Source: Cupriavidus necator
GTDB taxonomy: Bacteria; Pseudomonadota; Gammaproteobacteria; Burkholderiales; Burkholderiaceae
Assembly: GCF_016127575.1 (NCBI RefSeq)
Contig: NZ_CP066018.1
Location: forward strand, 1,800,001-1,832,000
DNA length: 32,000 bases
Direction of reading: 5' to 3'
Below the pieces are notes generated by a model. The model worked only from the letters and a program-made list of their open reading frames with translations. It did not search any database and was not told where the DNA came from. A program made the position numbers and the translations under genes. Positions 6,332 through 13,569 of this stretch are shown one piece after another. Numbering within the stretch: the stretch's first letter is position 1; each line of letters opens with the position of its first letter.

Positions 6332-7522
6332 ATGGCAAAGGAAAAGTTCGAGCGGACCAAGCCGCACGTGAACGTTGGTACGATTGGTCACGTTGACCAT
6401 GGCAAGACCACGCTGACCGCAGCGATTGCCACGGTGCTGGCAGCCAAGTTTGGCGGTGCCGCCAAGAAGTACGACGAAATCGACGCAGCGCCGGAAGAAA
6501 AGGCACGCGGTATTACCATCAATACCGCGCACGTCGAGTACGAAACGGCCAACCGCCACTACGCGCACGTTGACTGCCCGGGCCACGCTGACTATGTGAA
6601 GAACATGATCACGGGTGCCGCCCAGATGGACGGCGCGATCCTGGTTTGCTCGGCTGCTGACGGCCCGATGCCGCAAACGCGTGAGCACATCCTGCTGGCC
6701 CGCCAGGTTGGCGTGCCGTACATCATCGTGTTCCTGAACAAGTGCGACATGGTGGACGACGCTGAACTGCTCGAGCTGGTCGAGATGGAAGTTCGCGAGC
6801 TGCTGTCGAAGTACGAGTTCCCCGGCGACGACACCCCGATCATCAAGGGTTCGGCCAAGCTGGCGCTGGAAGGCGACAAGGGCGAGCTGGGCGAAGTGGC
6901 CATCATGAACCTGGCCGACGCGCTGGACACCTACATCCCGACGCCGGAGCGTGCCGTTGACGGTACCTTCCTGATGCCTGTGGAAGACGTGTTCTCGATC
7001 TCGGGTCGCGGCACCGTGGTGACCGGCCGTATCGAGCGCGGCGTGGTGAAGGTCGGTGAGGAAATCGAAATCGTCGGTATCAAGCCGACGGTGAAGACCA
7101 CCTGCACCGGCGTGGAAATGTTCCGCAAGCTGCTGGACCAGGGTCAAGCCGGCGACAACGTTGGCCTGCTGCTGCGCGGCACCAAGCGTGAAGACGTCGA
7201 GCGCGGCCAGGTGCTGTGCAAGCCGGGTTCGATCAAGCCGCACACCCACTTCACCGGCGAGGTGTACATCCTGTCGAAGGACGAAGGCGGCCGTCACACC
7301 CCGTTCTTCAACAACTACCGCCCGCAGTTCTACTTCCGTACCACCGACGTGACCGGCTCGATCGAGCTGCCGAAGGACAAGGAAATGGTCATGCCGGGTG
7401 ACAACGTGTCGATCACCGTCAAGCTGATCGCCCCGATCGCCATGGAAGAAGGCCTGCGCTTCGCTATCCGCGAAGGTGGCCGTACCGTCGGCGCCGGCGT
7501 CGTGGCAAAGATCCTCGACTAA
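6332..7522 (+). CDS. tuf: Elongation factor Tu
   Basis: [32 protein letters not shown]...[25 protein letters not shown]..., 396 aa. AGGAG lies 6 nt upstream of the ATG. Confidence 0.98.
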
Positions 7523-7531
7523 GCACTTCCT

Positions 7532-7556
7532 GGGACATGCCTGTCGGGCATGTCCC
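7532..7556 (+). other. Stem-loop in the 78-nt tuf-rpsJ spacer (function unknown)
   Basis: GGGACATGCC (7532-7541) pairs perfectly with GGCATGTCCC (7547-7556) around a 5-nt loop. No T-tract follows, so it is not a canonical terminator. Confidence 0.4.
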
Positions 7557-7600
7557 CATTCAACGGGCACGTTGCCCAATCGCTCTTTTAAGGAAATATC

Positions 7601-7909
7601 ATGCAGAACCAGAAGATCCGTATCCGCCTGAAGGCTTTCGACTACCGCCTGATCGACCAGTCGGCCGCCGAAATCGTGGATACCGCCAAGCGTACCGGCG
7701 CAATCGTCAAGGGCCCGGTGCCCCTGCCGACCCGCATCCAGCGCTTCGACATCCTGCGTTCGCCGCACGTCAACAAGACCAGCCGCGATCAGTTTGAGAT
7801 CCGCACGCACCAGCGCCTGATGGACATCGTCGACCCGACCGACAAGACGGTTGACGCGCTGATGAAGCTCGACCTGCCGGCAGGCGTGGACGTCGAGATC
7901 AAGGTGTAA
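7601..7909 (+). CDS. rpsJ: 30S ribosomal protein S10
   Basis: [34 protein letters not shown]...GPVPLPT...[21 protein letters not shown], 102 aa. Confidence 0.98.
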
Positions 7910-7944
7910 TCATGCTTCGGGCCGCGCCTGCGGCCTGCTGCAGC

Positions 7945-7981
7945 AAAACGGCGAACCGTATGGTTCGCCGTTTTTGTTTTC
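7945..7981. terminator. Intrinsic terminator immediately after rpsJ, possibly bidirectional (the convergent AraC-family gene ends at 8103)
   Basis: AAAACGGCGAACC (7945-7957), loop GTAT, GGTTCGCCGTTTT (7962-7974), then TGTTTT. The A-tract/T-tract symmetry also gives a TTTT run after the stem on the minus strand. Confidence 0.8.
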
Positions 7982-8102
7982 AAGGCTTGCATACAGCAGC
8001 CTTGCTCCCCGGATTGCTCCCCTGCCGCGCCAGCTACAGTTGCGCGATGAGCTGAGCGATCGCGGCGGCTGCCCGAAGCGGCAGCACTGAATTCACACAA
8101 GC

Positions 8103-9104
8103 CTAGCCCGCTCCGCGCCGCCGCAAGGTCTGCGCGGGGCACTCCCCGAACGCGCGCCGGTATTCCGCGCTGAACCGCCCCAGATGGGCAAAGCCCCAGC
8201 GCAGCGCGGCCGCGCTCACTGACGACACCGACGCGACGTTCAGCAGGTCGTGCCGCACGCGCTCCAGCCGCACCGTGCGCAGGTAGGCCATCGGCCCGGT
8301 GCCGCGATGCTCGCGGAAGCCGGCGAACAGGCTGCGTACGCTGACGCCGGCAACCTCGGCCAGCACGGCGGGGGTCAGCTCCGCCGCCGCGTTTGCGTGA
8401 ATATATTCCTCCACCACTTTCACATGGCGCGGTGCCAGCGGCTTGCCGTGCTCGCGCACTGCATCCGACAGGCTGTGCGGCTGCGACGTCAGCAGCGTGC
8501 CGATCACCAGCTGTTCCAGCTGGCAGGCGGTCAGCGGATGGCGTGCGGTCTCGGGCGCGGTCGCCAGCATCGCGGCGAGATAGCGCATCAGCTCATACCA
8601 CGCGCCGCTGCGCCAGGCCATGCCGAGCGCAAAGCGCAGCGGCCGCTCGGACCGCCGGCCCAGATGGGCCGCGCAGATGCGTTCCAGCGCACTGCGTTCG
8701 ATGCGCACGATCAACTGGTCGTTGTCGGCGCTCCAGCGCATGGCCAGCGCATCGCTGGGCGTCAGCACCGAAGCGCAGTCGGGCGTGGAAACGATGTGCT
8801 GGTCGCCGCAGCGGATCTCGGCCTGTCCTTGCAGCGGCATCTGCACCAGCAGGAAGTCGCCGAGCGGGCCGGGGTCGATGGTGACGTCGGCGCCGTAGGC
8901 GAGGCGGTTGAACGAGACCGCGCCAAGCGGCGCATGATGCATGCGTGCCTGCAAGCGGGTGCCGCGTATCTCGAGCCGGTGCGGCTTGAACACGCGCCCG
9001 ACGGCGGCGCGCGTCTCGGCCAGGTCGGTCGAGGCGAACACGCACCGGGCGGGATCGCCGAGCAGGGCGCTCGCCAGCGGTCCGGCGGCGGGGGGCAGCT
9101 GCAT
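8103..9104 (-). CDS. AraC/XylS-family transcriptional regulator (iifR-like position)
   Basis: The C-terminus has the AraC double HTH ([24 protein letters not shown]...[26 protein letters not shown]). The start is set at ATG 9104 (MQLPPAAG...) because GAGGAG lies 7 nt upstream. The longer ORF-track N-terminus (to 9272) is Arg/Pro-rich and has no RBS. Confidence 0.85.
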
Positions 9105-9246
9105 TGTCTCGCTCCTCTGGCGGGGCCGCGGCGCTGCCGGTGACCGTGCGCGCCGCTGATTCCGGGGCCGGCCCGGCATGACGGCCGGGGCACGGTTTCC
9201 CACGCGATCCACTATAGCGGATGGCCTCGCCGTCTGCGCTGCGGCG

Positions 9247-9276
9247 TTGACCGAGCCCGAAGTTTCCTGCACTAAT
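9247..9276 (+). promoter_or_regulatory. Candidate promoter of the catabolic operon
   Basis: TTGACC (9247-9252), 18-nt spacer, ACTAAT (9271-9276), located in the divergent intergenic region. Confidence 0.35.
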
Positions 9277-9280
9277 CGGA

Positions 9281-9302
9281 TAGCCGCTGCGCCCAGCGGC
9301 TA
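9281..9302. promoter_or_regulatory. Perfect 8-bp inverted repeat just downstream of the candidate -10 (operator or leader hairpin)
   Basis: TAGCCGCT (9281-9288), 6-nt spacer, AGCGGCTA (9295-9302). Confidence 0.35.
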
Positions 9303-9389
9303 GTTTGCTGCGGTGCGGAGCCACCATTATGGAAGCCAGCACGGCAGTCCCACCAGACACCGGAAAGAGAACGACAAGGAGCGCAGGCC

Positions 9390-10619
9390 ATGGGCCAGAC
9401 CATCCAGATCCAGACCCCCGAAGGCAGTTTCAGCGGTTATCTCGCCACCCCGGCGGCAGGCAAGGGCCCGGGCATCGTGTTGTGCCAGGAGATCTTCGGC
9501 GTCAACGCGACCATGCGGCAGGTGGCGGACTACTACGCCGAGGAGGGCTATACGGTGCTGGTGCCCGACCTGTTCTGGCGCATCGCGCCCGGGATCGAGC
9601 TGACCGACCGCGGCGAGGACTTCCAGCGGGCGCTGGGCCTGTACCAGCAGTTCGACGAAGCCGCGGGCGTGCAGGATGTGGGCGCCGCGCTTGAAGCGCT
9701 GCGTGCGCGGCCGGAATGCGTCGGCCAGACCGGCGTGCTGGGCTTCTGCCTGGGCGGCAAGCTGGCCTACCTGGCGGCCTGCCGGCTGCCCGACGTGGCC
9801 TGTGCGGTGGCGTACTACGGCGTGGGCATCGAGCACGCGCTGGGCGAAGCCGCCAACGTGCGCGGCCGCCTGGTGCTGCATATCGCCGAGAAAGACGGAT
9901 TCTGCCCGCCGCAGGCGCAGGCTGCGATCCGCGCAGCCCTGGCCGGGCGCGAGAACATCGAGGTCTACGTCTACGCTGGCGTCGACCATGCCTTTGCCCG
10001 CACCGGTGGCGAGCACTTCGACAAGCCCTCGGCGCTGATGGCGCACCAGCGCTCGATCGCGGCGCTGCGCGGTGAAATGGGTCCGCACTACGATTTCTCC
10101 GCGCTGTGGGACAAGCACTGCGAATACGAATTTGCCACCCGCGATGTCGACGCCACCATGGCGACGATGGTGCCGCAGCCCTATGTGAACCATATCCCGA
10201 CCATGACCGGCGGGGTCGGCTACGCGCAGCTGCGGCGTTTCTACCAGCACCATTTCGTGCACAGCAATCCGCCCGACACCACGCTGATCCCGCTGTCGCG
10301 CACGGTCGGGGCCACGCAGATCGTCGACGAGATGCTGTTCTGCTTCACGCATAGCTGCGAGATCGACTGGATGCTGCCCGGCGTGCCGCCCACCGGCAAG
10401 CGCGTGGAGATCCCGCTGATCGCCATCGTCAAGTTCCGCGGCGACAAGCTGTACCACGAGCATATCTACTGGGACCAGGCCAGCGTGCTGGTGCAGATCG
10501 GCAAGCTGGATCCGGCGGGTTTGCCGGTCGCGGGCGTGGAGACCGCGCGCAAGCTGCTGGACGAGACCCTGCCGTCGAACACACTGATGGCGCGCTGGCA
10601 GCAGAGCGAAGGCAAATAG
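9390..10619 (+). CDS. Dienelactone-hydrolase-fold domain fused to a C-terminal NTF2/SnoaL-like domain (iifA-like position)
   Basis: The N-terminal ~230 aa align by eye to ClcD-type carboxymethylenebutenolidase: QEIFGVN (Glu), GFCLGG (Cys nucleophile), VDHAF (His). The C-terminal ~170 aa (DFSALWDKHCEYEF...IVKFRGDKLYHEHIYWDQASVL) look like an NTF2-like alpha+beta barrel. AAGGAG lies 8 nt upstream of the ATG. Confidence 0.8.
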   Translation: MGQTIQIQTPEGSFSGYLATPAAGKGPGIVLCQEIFGVNATMRQVADYYAEEGYTVLVPDLFWRIAPGIELTDRGEDFQRALGLYQQFDEAAGVQDVGAALEALRARPECVGQTGVLGFCLGGKLAYLAACRLPDVACAVAYYGVGIEHALGEAANVRGRLVLHIAEKDGFCPPQAQAAIRAALAGRENIEVYVYAGVDHAFARTGGEHFDKPSALMAHQRSIAALRGEMGPHYDFSALWDKHCEYEFATRDVDATMATMVPQPYVNHIPTMTGGVGYAQLRRFYQHHFVHSNPPDTTLIPLSRTVGATQIVDEMLFCFTHSCEIDWMLPGVPPTGKRVEIPLIAIVKFRGDKLYHEHIYWDQASVLVQIGKLDPAGLPVAGVETARKLLDETLPSNTLMARWQQSEGK

Positions 10620-10704
10620 GCTGCGCCCGCCGCATCGATCCGGAACGGGCCCGCAGAGGCCCGCCCGCAACCATCGCCGGCTGTTGCCGGCACAGGAGAC
10701 AAGC

Positions 10705-11493
10705 ATGAAAGGACTGCAGGGCAAGGTGGCCATTGTCACCGGCGGCGCCACGCTGATCGGCGCCGGCGTGGCGCGGGCCTTTGTCGAGGCCGGCGCGCGC
10801 GTGGCGATCTTCGACATCGATGCCGCCAACGGCGAGCGCGTGGCCGCGCAGCTGGGGGCGAACGCGCTCTTCATCGCCACCGACATCACGCGTGACGAGC
10901 AGGTTCGCGATGCCGTGGCGCAGGTGGTGCAGCGCTTTGGCGGCGTGGACTGCCTGGTCAACCTGGCCTGCACCTATCTCGATGACGGCTTCCGCTCGAA
11001 TCGTGCCGACTGGCTGGCGGCGCTCGACGTCAACGTGGTGTCGGGCGTGATGCTGGCGCAGGCGGTGCACCCGCATATGCGGGCGCGCGGCGGCGGTGCG
11101 ATCGTCAATTTCACCAGCATCTCTGCCAACGTGGCGCAGACCGGGCGCTGGCTCTACCCGGTGTCGAAAGCCGCCATCGCGCAGCTGACGCGCAGCATGG
11201 CGATGGACCTGGCGCCGGACCGCATCCGCGTCAACGCGGTGTCGCCAGGCTGGACCTGGTGCCGGCTGATGGACGAGGTCAGCGGCGGCAACCGTGCCCG
11301 CACCGATGCGGTGGCCGCGCCGTTCCACCTGCTGGGCCGCGTCGGCGAGCCCGACGAGGTGGCCCAGGTGGTGCTCTTCCTCTGTTCCGACCATGCCAGC
11401 TTCGTCACCGGTGCCGACTATGCCGTCGACGGCGGCTATTCCGCCATGGGGCCGGAGCAGAACGTGCCCGCCATCGGCAAGCTGGCCGGCTGA
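10705..11493 (+). CDS. Short-chain dehydrogenase/reductase (SDR), iifB-like position
   Basis: MKGLQGKVAIVTGGATLIGAG (TGxxxxGxG Rossmann motif) and a YPVSKAA (YxxxK) catalytic motif. AGGAGA lies 5 nt upstream of ATG 10705. The ORF-track start at 10684 is a TTG with no RBS. Confidence 0.88.
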   Translation: MKGLQGKVAIVTGGATLIGAGVARAFVEAGARVAIFDIDAANGERVAAQLGANALFIATDITRDEQVRDAVAQVVQRFGGVDCLVNLACTYLDDGFRSNRADWLAALDVNVVSGVMLAQAVHPHMRARGGGAIVNFTSISANVAQTGRWLYPVSKAAIAQLTRSMAMDLAPDRIRVNAVSPGWTWCRLMDEVSGGNRARTDAVAAPFHLLGRVGEPDEVAQVVLFLCSDHASFVTGADYAVDGGYSAMGPEQNVPAIGKLAG

Positions 11494-11526
11494 ACGCCGC
11501 CGAACGATCCTTCAGGAGAAAACGTC

Positions 11527-12768
11527 ATGAGCCAACGCATCGCCATCGTCGGAGCTGGCCAGTCGGGCCTGCAAATGGCCCTCGGGCTGCAAGCCAACGG
11601 CTACCGGGTCACGCTGCTGTCCAACCGGACCCCCGAGCAGATCCGCGGCGGGAAAGTCATGTCCAGCCAGTGCATGTTCGACCGCGCGCTGCAGGCCGAG
11701 CGCGAGCTCGGGCTGAACTGGTGGGACGATGCCTGCCCGCCGGTGGAGGGCATCGGCCTGGCCGTGCCGCATCCCGAGCAGGCCAGTGCCCGCGCGATCG
11801 ACTGGGCCGCGCCGCTGGACCGCCCGGCACAGGCGGTGGACCAGCGCCTGAAGATGCCCGCGTGGATGGAGGCCTTCGTTGCACGCGGCGGCGACCTGCG
11901 CATCGCCGATGTCGGCCCGGATGAACTGGAGGACCTGACCCGCGAGCATGACCTGGTGCTGCTGGCGGCCGGCAAGGGCGAGATCGTCAGCCGCTTCGAG
12001 CGCGATGCCTCCCGCAGCCCGTTCGACAAGCCGCAGCGCGCGCTGGCGCTGACATATGTGACCGGCATGCAGCCGCGCACGCCGTTCTCGCGGGTTTGCT
12101 TCAACCTGATCCCGGGCGTGGGTGAATACTTCGTCTTCCCCGCGCTGACGCTGTCGGGGCCGTGCGAGATCATGGTGTTCGAAGGCATCCCGGGCGGCCC
12201 GATGGACCGTTGGGCCGAGGCGCGCACGCCGGCGCAGCACCTGGCGGAAAGCCAGCGCATCCTGCAGACCTACCTGCCATGGGAGGCCGAGCGCTGTGAG
12301 CGGGTCGCGCTGACCGACGACAACGGCATCCTTGCCGGACGCTTCGCGCCAACGGTGCGCAAGCCGGTGCTGACGCTGCCGTCCGGGCGGCTGGTGTTCG
12401 GCATGGCCGATGCCGTGGTGGTCAACGACCCGATCACGGGGCAGGGTTCGAACAACGCAGCCAAATGCTGCAAGGTCTATCTCGATGCGATCCTGGCACG
12501 CGGCGACCAGCCCTTCGACCAGGACTGGATGGAGCGCACCTTCGACCAGTACTGGCAGTACGCGGGCGACGTGGTGGCGTGGACCAACTCGCTGCTGACC
12601 CCGCCGCCGCCGCATATCCTGGCGCTGCTGGGCGCCGCGGGGCAGGCGCCGGCACTGGCCGCGCGCATCGCCAACGGTTTCGACAATCCGCCGGACTATT
12701 TCCCGTGGTGGCTGGATCCACAGGCTTGCCACCAGCTGATCAACCAGTACGTCGCCGAGGCCGCCTGA
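11527..12768 (+). CDS. StyA-like (group E) FAD-dependent monooxygenase, oxygenase component (styrene/indole monooxygenase family; iifC-like)
   Basis: RIAIVGAGQSGL dinucleotide-binding motif, SPFDKPQRAL, DPITGQGSN and WTNSLL blocks match my recollection of StyA. The 413-aa length also fits. AGGAG lies upstream. Confidence 0.8.
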   Translation: MSQRIAIVGAGQSGLQMALGLQANGYRVTLLSNRTPEQIRGGKVMSSQCMFDRALQAERELGLNWWDDACPPVEGIGLAVPHPEQASARAIDWAAPLDRPAQAVDQRLKMPAWMEAFVARGGDLRIADVGPDELEDLTREHDLVLLAAGKGEIVSRFERDASRSPFDKPQRALALTYVTGMQPRTPFSRVCFNLIPGVGEYFVFPALTLSGPCEIMVFEGIPGGPMDRWAEARTPAQHLAESQRILQTYLPWEAERCERVALTDDNGILAGRFAPTVRKPVLTLPSGRLVFGMADAVVVNDPITGQGSNNAAKCCKVYLDAILARGDQPFDQDWMERTFDQYWQYAGDVVAWTNSLLTPPPPHILALLGAAGQAPALAARIANGFDNPPDYFPWWLDPQACHQLINQYVAEAA

Positions 12769-12769
12769 C

Positions 12770-13270
12770 ATGCACGCCGCCACGCCCGCCACTTCCGTCC
12801 ATGATCCCCGCGAACTGCGCCGGGTTTGCGGCCGCTATGCCACCGGCGTGGCCGTCATCGGCGCCTGCGGGGCGCAGGGCCGGCCCGTCGGCTTGACGGT
12901 GAACTCGTTTGCCTCGCTGTCGCTGGCGCCGCCGCTGATCCTGTGGAGCCTGGCGCTGCACTCGCCGAATGCGGGCCTGTTCGTGCCCGGCGCGCCTTTC
13001 GGCGTCAGCATCCTGCGCGCCGGCCATGGCGAACTGGCGCGCCGCTTCGCCACGCCGGTGGCGGACAAGTTCGCGGGCGTCGCCCACGGGCGCTGCGAGC
13101 GCGGCGTGCCCTACCTGGACGAAGCACTGGCGACCCTGGCCTGCCGCGTGGAGCGGGCCGACCCGGTAGGCGATCATCTGCTGATCGTCGGCGCCGTCGA
13201 GGCATACGAGGCAGGGGAGGGCGAACCGCTGGTATTCTATGGCGGCGATTTCGTGCGCCTCGCCGCCTGA
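12770..13270 (+). CDS. NAD(P)H:flavin oxidoreductase, reductase component (StyB/HpaC-like; iifD-like)
   Basis: Flavin_Reduct signature ...YATGVAVIGA...GLTVNSFASLSLAPPLILWSL...GDHLLIVG.V, 166 aa. The ATG lies 1 nt after the stop of the upstream gene (TGAcATG), implying translational coupling. Confidence 0.85.
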   Translation: MHAATPATSVHDPRELRRVCGRYATGVAVIGACGAQGRPVGLTVNSFASLSLAPPLILWSLALHSPNAGLFVPGAPFGVSILRAGHGELARRFATPVADKFAGVAHGRCERGVPYLDEALATLACRVERADPVGDHLLIVGAVEAYEAGEGEPLVFYGGDFVRLAA

Positions 13271-13403
13271 GCAACCATCTCCCGGATGCGCTTCGCGGCA
13301 CTTCAACTACCGCCCGTCGCCTCCACACCACACCCCAAGTCACGCAAGCGCCACTACTGCGGCACGCCTGCCTACAACACTGCAGGCGAATCCGCAATTC
13401 ATA

Positions 13404-13432
13404 TTGCCCTTTCCAAACCGCTGCGATATAGT
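13404..13432 (+). promoter_or_regulatory. Candidate strong sigma70 promoter for rplC and the downstream S10-operon genes
   Basis: TTGCCC (13404-13409), exactly 17 nt, TATAGT (13427-13432), with an AT-rich stretch (CAATTCATA) just upstream. Lies about 135 nt before the rplC ATG. Confidence 0.55.
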
Positions 13433-13569
13433 GTAAGGCTACCCGTTTCCTCGGGTAGTGGGCTGGCCACTTTGGCCGCGCGCAGTCTTCTTTAGCGCAA
13501 GCCCACAGCAAACACAGTTTTCGTGTATCAATCAGCCCCGGCCAATCGCAGCTGGGAATGGAGCAAACC

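Follow-up and report, generated by a model that had tools for sequence, protein, structure and literature searches.

Introduction

The iif gene cluster, also called ind, turns indole into anthranilate in Acinetobacter sp. O153 and Cupriavidus sp. SHE (PMC6221969). Here, we analyse a cluster assigned to this type from its sequence in a stretch of 32,000 nucleotides (nt) of Cupriavidus necator DNA (assembly GCF_016127575.1, contig NZ_CP066018.1, forward-strand positions 1,800,001 to 1,832,000; hereafter the window), in which it lies between the ribosomal-protein genes rpsJ and rplC. In the described route, IifC and IifD yield indole-2,3-dihydrodiol, IifB turns the dihydrodiol into 3-hydroxyindolin-2-one, and IifA of Acinetobacter sp. 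O153, a cofactor-independent oxygenase, converts 3-hydroxyindolin-2-one to anthranilate; a role of iifE in indole conversion has been excluded (PMC6221969). In Acinetobacter baumannii, IifA is a dienelactone-hydrolase (DLH) protein of 416 amino acids, IifB a short-chain dehydrogenase (SDR) of 261, IifC a protein of 412 and IifD a flavin reductase of 176, and IifR carries AraC_binding_2 and HTH_18 domains (PMC4577076).

The Acinetobacter clusters (A. baumannii ATCC 19606 and sp. O153; iifABCDE and iifR) and that of Cupriavidus sp. SHE share with the window the same five protein types, similar protein sizes and the order iifA-B-C-D. The Acinetobacter cluster also shares an AraC-type regulator with both domains and, as predicted for the window, a pathway from indole to anthranilate. 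It differs in having iifE, which the Cupriavidus cluster lacks, and in having iifR downstream, whereas the Cupriavidus iifR is upstream and divergent; nor is it wedged between rpsJ and rplC. A further relative is the WHOP region of Pseudomonas savastanoi (whpR, dhoAB, ipoABC), in which dhoA, dhoB, ipoA, ipoB and whpR are homologous to iifA, iifB, iifC, iifD and iifR, respectively. Both appear to be of the AraC-controlled indole-catabolism type; however, the WHOP region is part of a larger, virulence-linked genomic island with antABC and catBCA, whereas in Cupriavidus the five genes stand alone within a core ribosomal region.

The S10 operon of Escherichia coli, which L4 regulates, contains rpsJ and rplC as neighbours about 30 nt apart, with its promoter and L4-controlled leader upstream of rpsJ. 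The order rplC-rplD-rplW-rplB and onward is shared with the window, and in E. coli rpsJ is immediately upstream of it. In the window, by contrast, rpsJ lies 78 nt after tuf and ends in a putative terminator, a predicted promoter and structured leader precede rplC, and no Rfam leader matches. An earlier note on this DNA had taken rpsJ and rplC to be adjacent and co-transcribed in this lineage and had concluded that the insert forces a rewiring of S10-operon transcription. Comparison with insert-free relatives bore out neither point.

Results

The iif cluster occupies an unconserved spacer between the predicted rpsJ terminator and rplC promoter

The gene rpsJ (ribosomal protein S10; 7601–7909, plus strand; Pfam PF00338, E 1e-36; NCBIfam S10 equivalog, E 2e-51) is separated from rplC (ribosomal protein L3; 13570–14220, plus strand; NCBIfam L3_bact, E 2e-84), which heads the rplC-rplD-rplW-rplB unit, by 5,660 bp (7910–13569). 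These coordinates had been given correctly in the earlier note, and its description of the gap, with a minus-strand AraC regulator and a plus-strand operon of four genes in the direction of the ribosomal genes, agreed with the open reading frames and domain matches.

The insert-free rpsJ–rplC spacers of C. gilardii, C. respiraculi, C. plantarum, C. campinensis, two further Cupriavidus genomes (loci L105 and L106) and Ralstonia were 288–358 nt long. They contained, in order, two hairpins directly after rpsJ, the second with a 12–13-bp G+C-rich stem and a T-tract, then 80–140 nt of unconserved DNA, a promoter-like TTGCNC-17-TATAGT, and a leader of about 130 nt. Filled genomes had the same hairpins at the same distance from rpsJ, the same promoter and the same leader. 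When filled and empty sites were aligned, the leader was nearly invariant over its last 50 nt, and homology was lost only between the T-tract and about position −40. The iif cluster occupies only the unconserved middle between the rpsJ terminator and the rplC promoter.

In the window, the two hairpins 3' of rpsJ were found at 7913–7981 by terminator scan and folding. The second has a 13-bp stem (7945–7974) followed by UUUUUGUUUU, and the hairpins fold with −42.8 kcal/mol (plus-strand z −5.8, minus-strand z −6.9). Its consensus features and conservation suggest that the second hairpin is an intrinsic terminator for rpsJ, and the A-tract 5' of it would let the hairpin serve the minus strand too, for the convergent iifR. 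On the other side of the insert, TTGCCC-17-TATAGT (13404–13432, plus strand) was the sole promoter-scan match in 9 kb and was kept in all insert-bearing and insert-free Cupriavidus examined and in Ralstonia. It is followed by the rplC leader (13437–13569) and, within this, by a GGAG ribosome-binding site at 13560–13563, 7 nt 5' of the gene.

Upstream, the gap between tuf (EF-Tu; 6332–7522, plus strand, from open reading frame and translation) and rpsJ is only 78 nt. The scan found no promoter or terminator match in 7523–7600, and the fold of 7523–7603 gave a stem without a U-tract. Because this gap has neither a U-tract terminator nor a promoter-like site, rpsJ probably rides on the str/tuf transcript. 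An arrangement of the E. coli S10 type, with a promoter and a leader of about 170 nt upstream of rpsJ, was not seen in these 78 nt (no Rfam match at E ≤ 1), and even in the empty relatives rpsJ and rplC are not within a few tens of nt of each other free of terminator or promoter.

We therefore consider it quite probable that the cluster interrupts no transcription unit. In this reading, rpsJ would be the tail of the str/tuf unit and rplC would head a separate one; the simplest reading of the spacers is that this holds with or without the insert. Since the empty-site relatives already have the terminator, the promoter and the leader, no rewiring of ribosomal-gene expression would be needed. The opposite course, in which the insertion split a co-transcribed rpsJ–rplC operon and a new terminator and promoter evolved afterwards, would follow from the adjacency of the two genes in one L4-regulated operon in E. 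coli. The A-run 5' of the terminator stem could also be read as a small post-insertion adaptation that made the hairpin bidirectional for iifR: at 7940–7948 and in the compared loci (L094–L106), it has 4–5 A in most filled Cupriavidus and 1–3 A in empty ones. A longer A-tract would help termination of the convergent iifR, and the contrast between filled and empty sites is confounded by phylogeny. Against a split operon, the terminator, promoter and leader could be aligned across seven lineages that lack the insert, the sister genus Ralstonia among them, and a promoter-like motif and hairpin close to rplC were also present in Burkholderia multivorans and many betaproteobacterial-looking metagenome contigs. 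The empty-site alignments largely refute this explanation, which we regard as very improbable.

Downstream of iifD, the spacer at 13271–13403 (133 nt, plus strand) is C-rich and G-poor in H16 (C 0.43, G 0.19) and poorly conserved between clades, and the terminator scan found no intrinsic terminator in it. Read-through of iifD transcription into rplC and Rho-dependent termination are both possible.

The five genes belong to a characterised type of indole-catabolic cluster

The five-gene module belongs to an already known and characterised type of catabolic cluster. Domain content, protein sizes and the order iifABCD match the A. baumannii iif operon, and on this basis we identify the module as iifR-iifABCD, of the type that converts indole to anthranilate. 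Its proteins are the C. necator H16 entries CAJ94553–CAJ94557, the exact iifR sequence being CAJ94557.

The iifR gene (8103–9104, minus strand) adjoins the operon and encodes an AraC/XylS-family regulator of 333 amino acids with AraC_binding_2 (PF14525, E 4e-50) and HTH_18 (PF12833, E 7e-21), the domains of A. baumannii IifR; its best NCBIfam match, under the cutoff, was AndR. The operon is headed by iifA (9390–10619, plus strand), whose 409-residue product combines a DLH fold (PF01738, E 5e-41; PDB 1din, E 1e-39 over residues 4–224) with a SnoaL-like C-terminal half (PF12680, E 1e-6). Homologues of IifA with 70–98% identity head iif clusters in at least 80 genomes. Between iifA and iifC lies iifB (10705–11493, plus strand), coding for an SDR of 262 amino acids (PF13561, E 1e-61).

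The last two genes, only 1 nt apart, have the make-up of a two-component flavin monooxygenase: iifC (indA; 11527–12768, plus strand) encodes a StyA/IndA-like oxygenase component of 413 amino acids (PF17885, Smoa_sbd, E 1e-44), and iifD (indB; 12770–13270, plus strand) an NADH:flavin reductase of 166 amino acids (PF01613, E 6e-33). IifC matched PDB 7z4x/7z97 with E 6e-190 over residues 3–403, but the styrene monooxygenase 3ihm with only E 2e-40. We take 7z4x to be the indole monooxygenase VpIndA1 of Variovorax paradoxus, a single crystallised enzyme, although the name of the PDB entry does not say so. Two indole degraders carry the cluster: Cupriavidus sp. IDO (L014), with proteins 81–91% identical, and Cupriavidus KK10, whose IifC and IifD fall in the same 90% clusters. 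No gene for iifE, which encodes an outer-membrane protein like that of the MetA phenol-degradation pathway, was found between iifD and rplC; iifE is not essential to the cluster, because the review reports that its role in indole conversion was ruled out (PMC6221969).

By analogy with the characterised clusters, IifR is predicted to be an indole-responsive activator of iifABCD, which it would turn on when indole is present. IifC, supplied with reduced flavin adenine dinucleotide by IifD, would oxygenate indole at C2–C3, IifB would oxidise the dihydrodiol to 3-hydroxyindolin-2-one, and ring opening by IifA would give anthranilate. The alignment of 15 Cupriavidus loci showed conserved blocks in the region between iifR and iifA (9105–9389): CCACTATAGCGGAT, with a TATAGT −10 element on the minus strand (9211–9216), TTGACC (9247–9252), ACTAAT (9271–9276), and TTTCCTGCACTAATCGGATAGCCGCTGC...CTAGTTTGCTGCGGTGCGG. 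These blocks would be compatible with a pair of divergent promoters plus an operator.

It seems unlikely that the cluster acts on something other than indole, such as styrene-type alkenes or a different N-heterocycle. IifC does fall in the styrene/indole monooxygenase family (its NCBI name is 'styrene monooxygenase/indole monooxygenase family protein'), its NCBIfam StyA score was 213 against a cutoff of 550, no equivalog model matched IifA–D, and Cupriavidus strains also turn over skatole and other indoles. However, IifC is much nearer the 7z4x chain than StyA, and a set of four enzymes that includes a DLH-SnoaL IifA, together with an AndR-like AraC regulator, is the hallmark of the characterised route from indole to anthranilate.

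A conserved hairpin precedes rplC in and beyond Cupriavidus

The rplC leader folds into three upstream hairpins and a conserved one, whose stem (13537–13542 / 13551–13556) encloses the loop CAAUCGCA and which stands 4 nt before the GGAG site; the whole element spans 13532–13556. The consensus fold of 18 sequences had 37 predicted pairs, four of them with compensatory changes, and the single-sequence fold was −51.3 kcal/mol (z −2.4). The hairpin has the form CCCNNC-CAAUCGNN-GNNGGG, and was also found at L108:3452–3476, L109:3583–3606 and in loci L111–L230.

A search of metagenome contigs with the pattern TCAGCCC-N2-3-CCAATCG-NN-G-NN-GGG returned 120 stretches, and 106 of these lay 12–82 nt upstream of a gene for L3 (60–98% identical to that of the window). 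In the rplC-linked contigs, the spacers between the S10 gene and rplC were 102–356 nt. The outer pairs and loop are fixed by the search pattern, leaving only two stem pairs free; both were kept, as G-C, A-U, C-G or G-U, in 104 of the 106 L3-linked matches versus 4 of the 14 unlinked ones. A conserved, covarying structure thus stands at a fixed position before a ribosomal-protein gene. In addition, 47 of 88 unique diverse rplC regions carried a promoter-like motif within 180 nt upstream, against 0.6 expected from shuffles.

Apart from B. multivorans, the search for S10 homologues yielded little of use, most matches being metagenome proteins. The rpsJ–rplC spacer of this species is 177 nt long, with the motif TTGCAG-17-TACAAT and the same terminal hairpin. 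We also observed, between its tuf and rpsJ (L108:2713–3000), a terminator-like hairpin, a promoter-like TCGACA...TAGAAT and a leader of about 120 nt, unlike Cupriavidus and Ralstonia; the promoter motifs of this species were read by eye, the consensus promoter scan not having flagged them. Ribosomal transcription-unit boundaries seem to differ between genera of one family. The presence of the rplC-proximal promoter-like motif and hairpin in B. multivorans and in L3-linked metagenome contigs indicates that both long predate the Cupriavidus insertion.

At gathering thresholds, Rfam gave no match in the window or ten related loci, and the literature searched had no relevant mention of an rplC leader in Betaproteobacteria. 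As for rRNA mimicry, E. coli 23S rRNA contains no exact CCAATCG, and one-mismatch matches were at chance level. The hairpin may be a ribosomal-protein leader, perhaps an undescribed one, and perhaps a site of feedback control by L4 or L3.

The spacer has also received another insertion. The metagenome contig CXWL01115972.1, whose L3 is 76% identical to that of the window, carries an independent and unrelated insertion of 8.26 kb in the same place (L145:597–8860). It encodes DUF2784 and DUF2214 proteins and, on the opposite strand, an MscS channel, a PIG-L deacetylase and three proteins of sugar metabolism: a GH4 glycosidase, a PfkB kinase and a GT20+S6PP synthase/phosphatase. This locus retains an rplC promoter motif (TTGCGT-17-TATACT) and the hairpin. 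The spacer would be a permissive landing site because the lineage put an operon boundary between rpsJ and rplC. Taken together, we propose, tentatively and short of an even chance, that the hairpin behind an rplC-specific promoter is a widespread, undescribed leader of Betaproteobacteria that may replace the E. coli S10 leader, and that the rpsJ–rplC spacer is a landing site at which two or more independent insertions have occurred.

The insert is typical of most Cupriavidus and bears no marks of a mobile element

Ten Cupriavidus chromosomes were retrieved by exact match to the S10 protein, and all of them had an insert between S10 and L3. A scan for IifA with one genome per species gave at least 80 loci; some Cupriavidus species, including C. 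necator, were not among the matches listed, and counts of filled species are lower bounds. Among these matches, S10 and L3 flanked the cluster in 12 of 12 Cupriavidus-type loci and in none of the 68 others listed, which came from Burkholderia, Paraburkholderia, Hydrogenophaga, Acidovorax, Bordetella, Achromobacter, Halomonas and others. The order S10–(iifR)–iifA–L3 was found in all insert-bearing Cupriavidus loci, at least 26 in number.

The insert is found in the necator/taiwanensis, basilensis and metallidurans/pauculus clades, C. metallidurans itself included, and is decayed or absent in a few genomes. It was not present at rpsJ–rplC in C. gilardii, C. respiraculi, C. plantarum, C. campinensis, the two further Cupriavidus genomes mentioned above (CP186010 and SGXM01) or Ralstonia. 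The earlier note had left it between unusual and clade-typical: it is clade-typical for most of the genus Cupriavidus but not for the family, because Ralstonia and B. multivorans lack it here and the iif clusters of other genera are sited elsewhere. Decay was observed in DTP0602 (L003:8310–10019), which retains iifA alone with its promoter region, and in C. lacunae (L011:509–3746), which has lost iifR and iifC and has a shortened iifB homologue (615 of about 786 nt aligned). The cluster is evidently under non-uniform selection across Cupriavidus. The literature searched does not mention the rpsJ/rplC position of the iif cluster, a position that is only mildly surprising once the architecture of the spacer is known.

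Pfam and NCBIfam searches of the five genes gave no transposase or integrase domain, and at the borders there was no tRNA and no terminal direct or inverted repeat beyond GC-rich chance matches; the earlier note had likewise seen none of these. Its impression of native high-GC genes also held: the G+C content of the insert genes was 0.67–0.73 and that at third codon positions 0.86–0.90, equal to the native non-ribosomal genes recQ, dsbD and corA in the window. More than 25 independent assemblies, complete chromosomes included, show this arrangement, and the window was 100% identical over 6.9 kb to a chromosome assembly. Because of this recurrence, the insert is no assembly artefact. A compact accessory module of 5.7 kb inside a core gene block, with presence and absence varying within Cupriavidus, could suggest a recent mobile element, a genomic island or an assembly chimera. 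We give this almost no credence, given the lack of integrase, transposase, tRNA and flanking repeats, the native composition, the same junctions in all those assemblies, closed chromosomes among them, and orthologues that have diverged by 10–25%.

The insert was probably acquired once within Cupriavidus

In the rplC-rplD-rplW tree, the empty species were basal beside Ralstonia (C. gilardii with C. respiraculi, then C. plantarum, then C. campinensis), and the filled genomes formed three clades, metallidurans/pauculus, basilensis and necator/taiwanensis. In the IifA and IifC trees, Cupriavidus was monophyletic with three sub-clades mirroring the ribosomal tree, in agreement with the earlier description of an old, domesticated insertion. 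The sister of the Cupriavidus iif clade was a small Burkholderia/Paraburkholderia group whose cluster is sited elsewhere, and across the Cupriavidus clades the orthologues differed by 10–25% at the protein level. We propose a single insertion into the 80–140 nt of unconserved DNA between the rpsJ terminator and the rplC promoter, in the ancestor of the three filled clades, which would have been followed by mostly vertical inheritance.

If the insert were instead ancestral to all Cupriavidus or older, the empty sites would be clean secondary deletions. Partial decay in DTP0602 and C. lacunae, and the nesting of the empty L105 and L106 within a filled group, would suit such a history. On the other side, the empty C. 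gilardii/C. respiraculi, C. plantarum and C. campinensis are basal, beside an empty Ralstonia; the empty spacers contain no iif remnants; and a spacer motif missing from filled alleles is common to L103, L105 and L106, which points to retained or re-imported ancestral alleles rather than deletion scars. We consider secondary deletion unlikely and favour a single insertion.

Neighbouring sequences

The gene order in the window is rpoC'-recQ-rpsL-rpsG-fusA-tuf-rpsJ, the gap, and rplC-rplD-rplW-rplB, followed by the remaining S10/spc/alpha block. The recQ helicase gene (720–2606) lies between rpoC and rpsL, an order that other Cupriavidus share; in Ralstonia (L097), LysR and MFS genes stand between recQ and rpsL. 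This is a second spot at which the block of RNA-polymerase and ribosomal genes contains non-ribosomal ones.

The non-coding spacer of about 120 nt (7982–8102) that separates the terminator from the stop codon of iifR is specific to the necator allele, as judged by alignment and by a BLASTN break at 7979–8109 against other Cupriavidus; in most Cupriavidus, iifR ends 20–40 nt from the terminator. A permissive Rfam search matched only the Xanthomonas small RNA Xoo2 at 7902–7977 (26 bits against a cutoff of 45), with an alignment carried by the terminator stem. Since Xoo2 is reported as X. oryzae-specific, the match was taken as a chance resemblance to a terminator.

The motif CCAATCGC occurs both in the tuf–rpsJ spacer (7566–7575, GTTGCCCAATCGCTCTTTT), where it directly follows a small hairpin, and in the rplC hairpin loop (13542–13549); this may be coincidence, and B. 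multivorans lacks the motif upstream of rpsJ. On the C. taiwanensis chromosome LT976995.1 (L005:7289–8377), rpsJ is present twice in tandem (7488–7796 and 8001–8309) in copies of about 97% identical DNA, either a real duplication of about 510 bp or an assembly artefact.

Discussion

Our account is that an indole-type iif cluster entered a spacer already bounded by a terminator and a promoter, and several points weigh against it. The activity of the terminator and of the sigma-70-type rplC promoter is judged from consensus and conservation. With no intrinsic terminator after iifD, induced iif transcripts might run on into rplC, which would add some coupling. All trees were built by neighbour joining from short alignments. 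Within the otherwise filled pauculus group, L105 and L106 have an empty site with a C. campinensis-like spacer, and the position of C. laharis differs between the iif and the ribosomal trees; descent has therefore not been purely vertical. A filled genome, L107, has an L3 protein identical to that of the empty L105/L106 group. A reasonable inference is that filled and empty alleles were exchanged by recombination through the almost invariant flanks, loss being the alternative. Lastly, the literature searched documents no indole turnover by H16 itself, in which indole induction and the chemistry of the cluster are deduced from the characterised systems.

Five H16 genes that bear generic names only can now be assigned a likely indole-catabolic function. 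For engineering of C. necator H16, the segment 7982–13403 is probably a dispensable, insulated slot: the terminator before it and the housekeeping promoter after it would both be strong, and the homology arms on either side are near-invariant. More broadly, the locus corrects an E. coli-centred assumption: in Cupriavidus, Ralstonia, B. multivorans and many betaproteobacterial-looking metagenome contigs, rplC appears to be the first gene of the "S10 operon", and rpsJ appears to be terminated separately or to be in its own unit. The conserved rplC hairpin is a testable candidate for the control of ribosomal-protein synthesis in a class of bacteria that lacks the leaders of E. coli.

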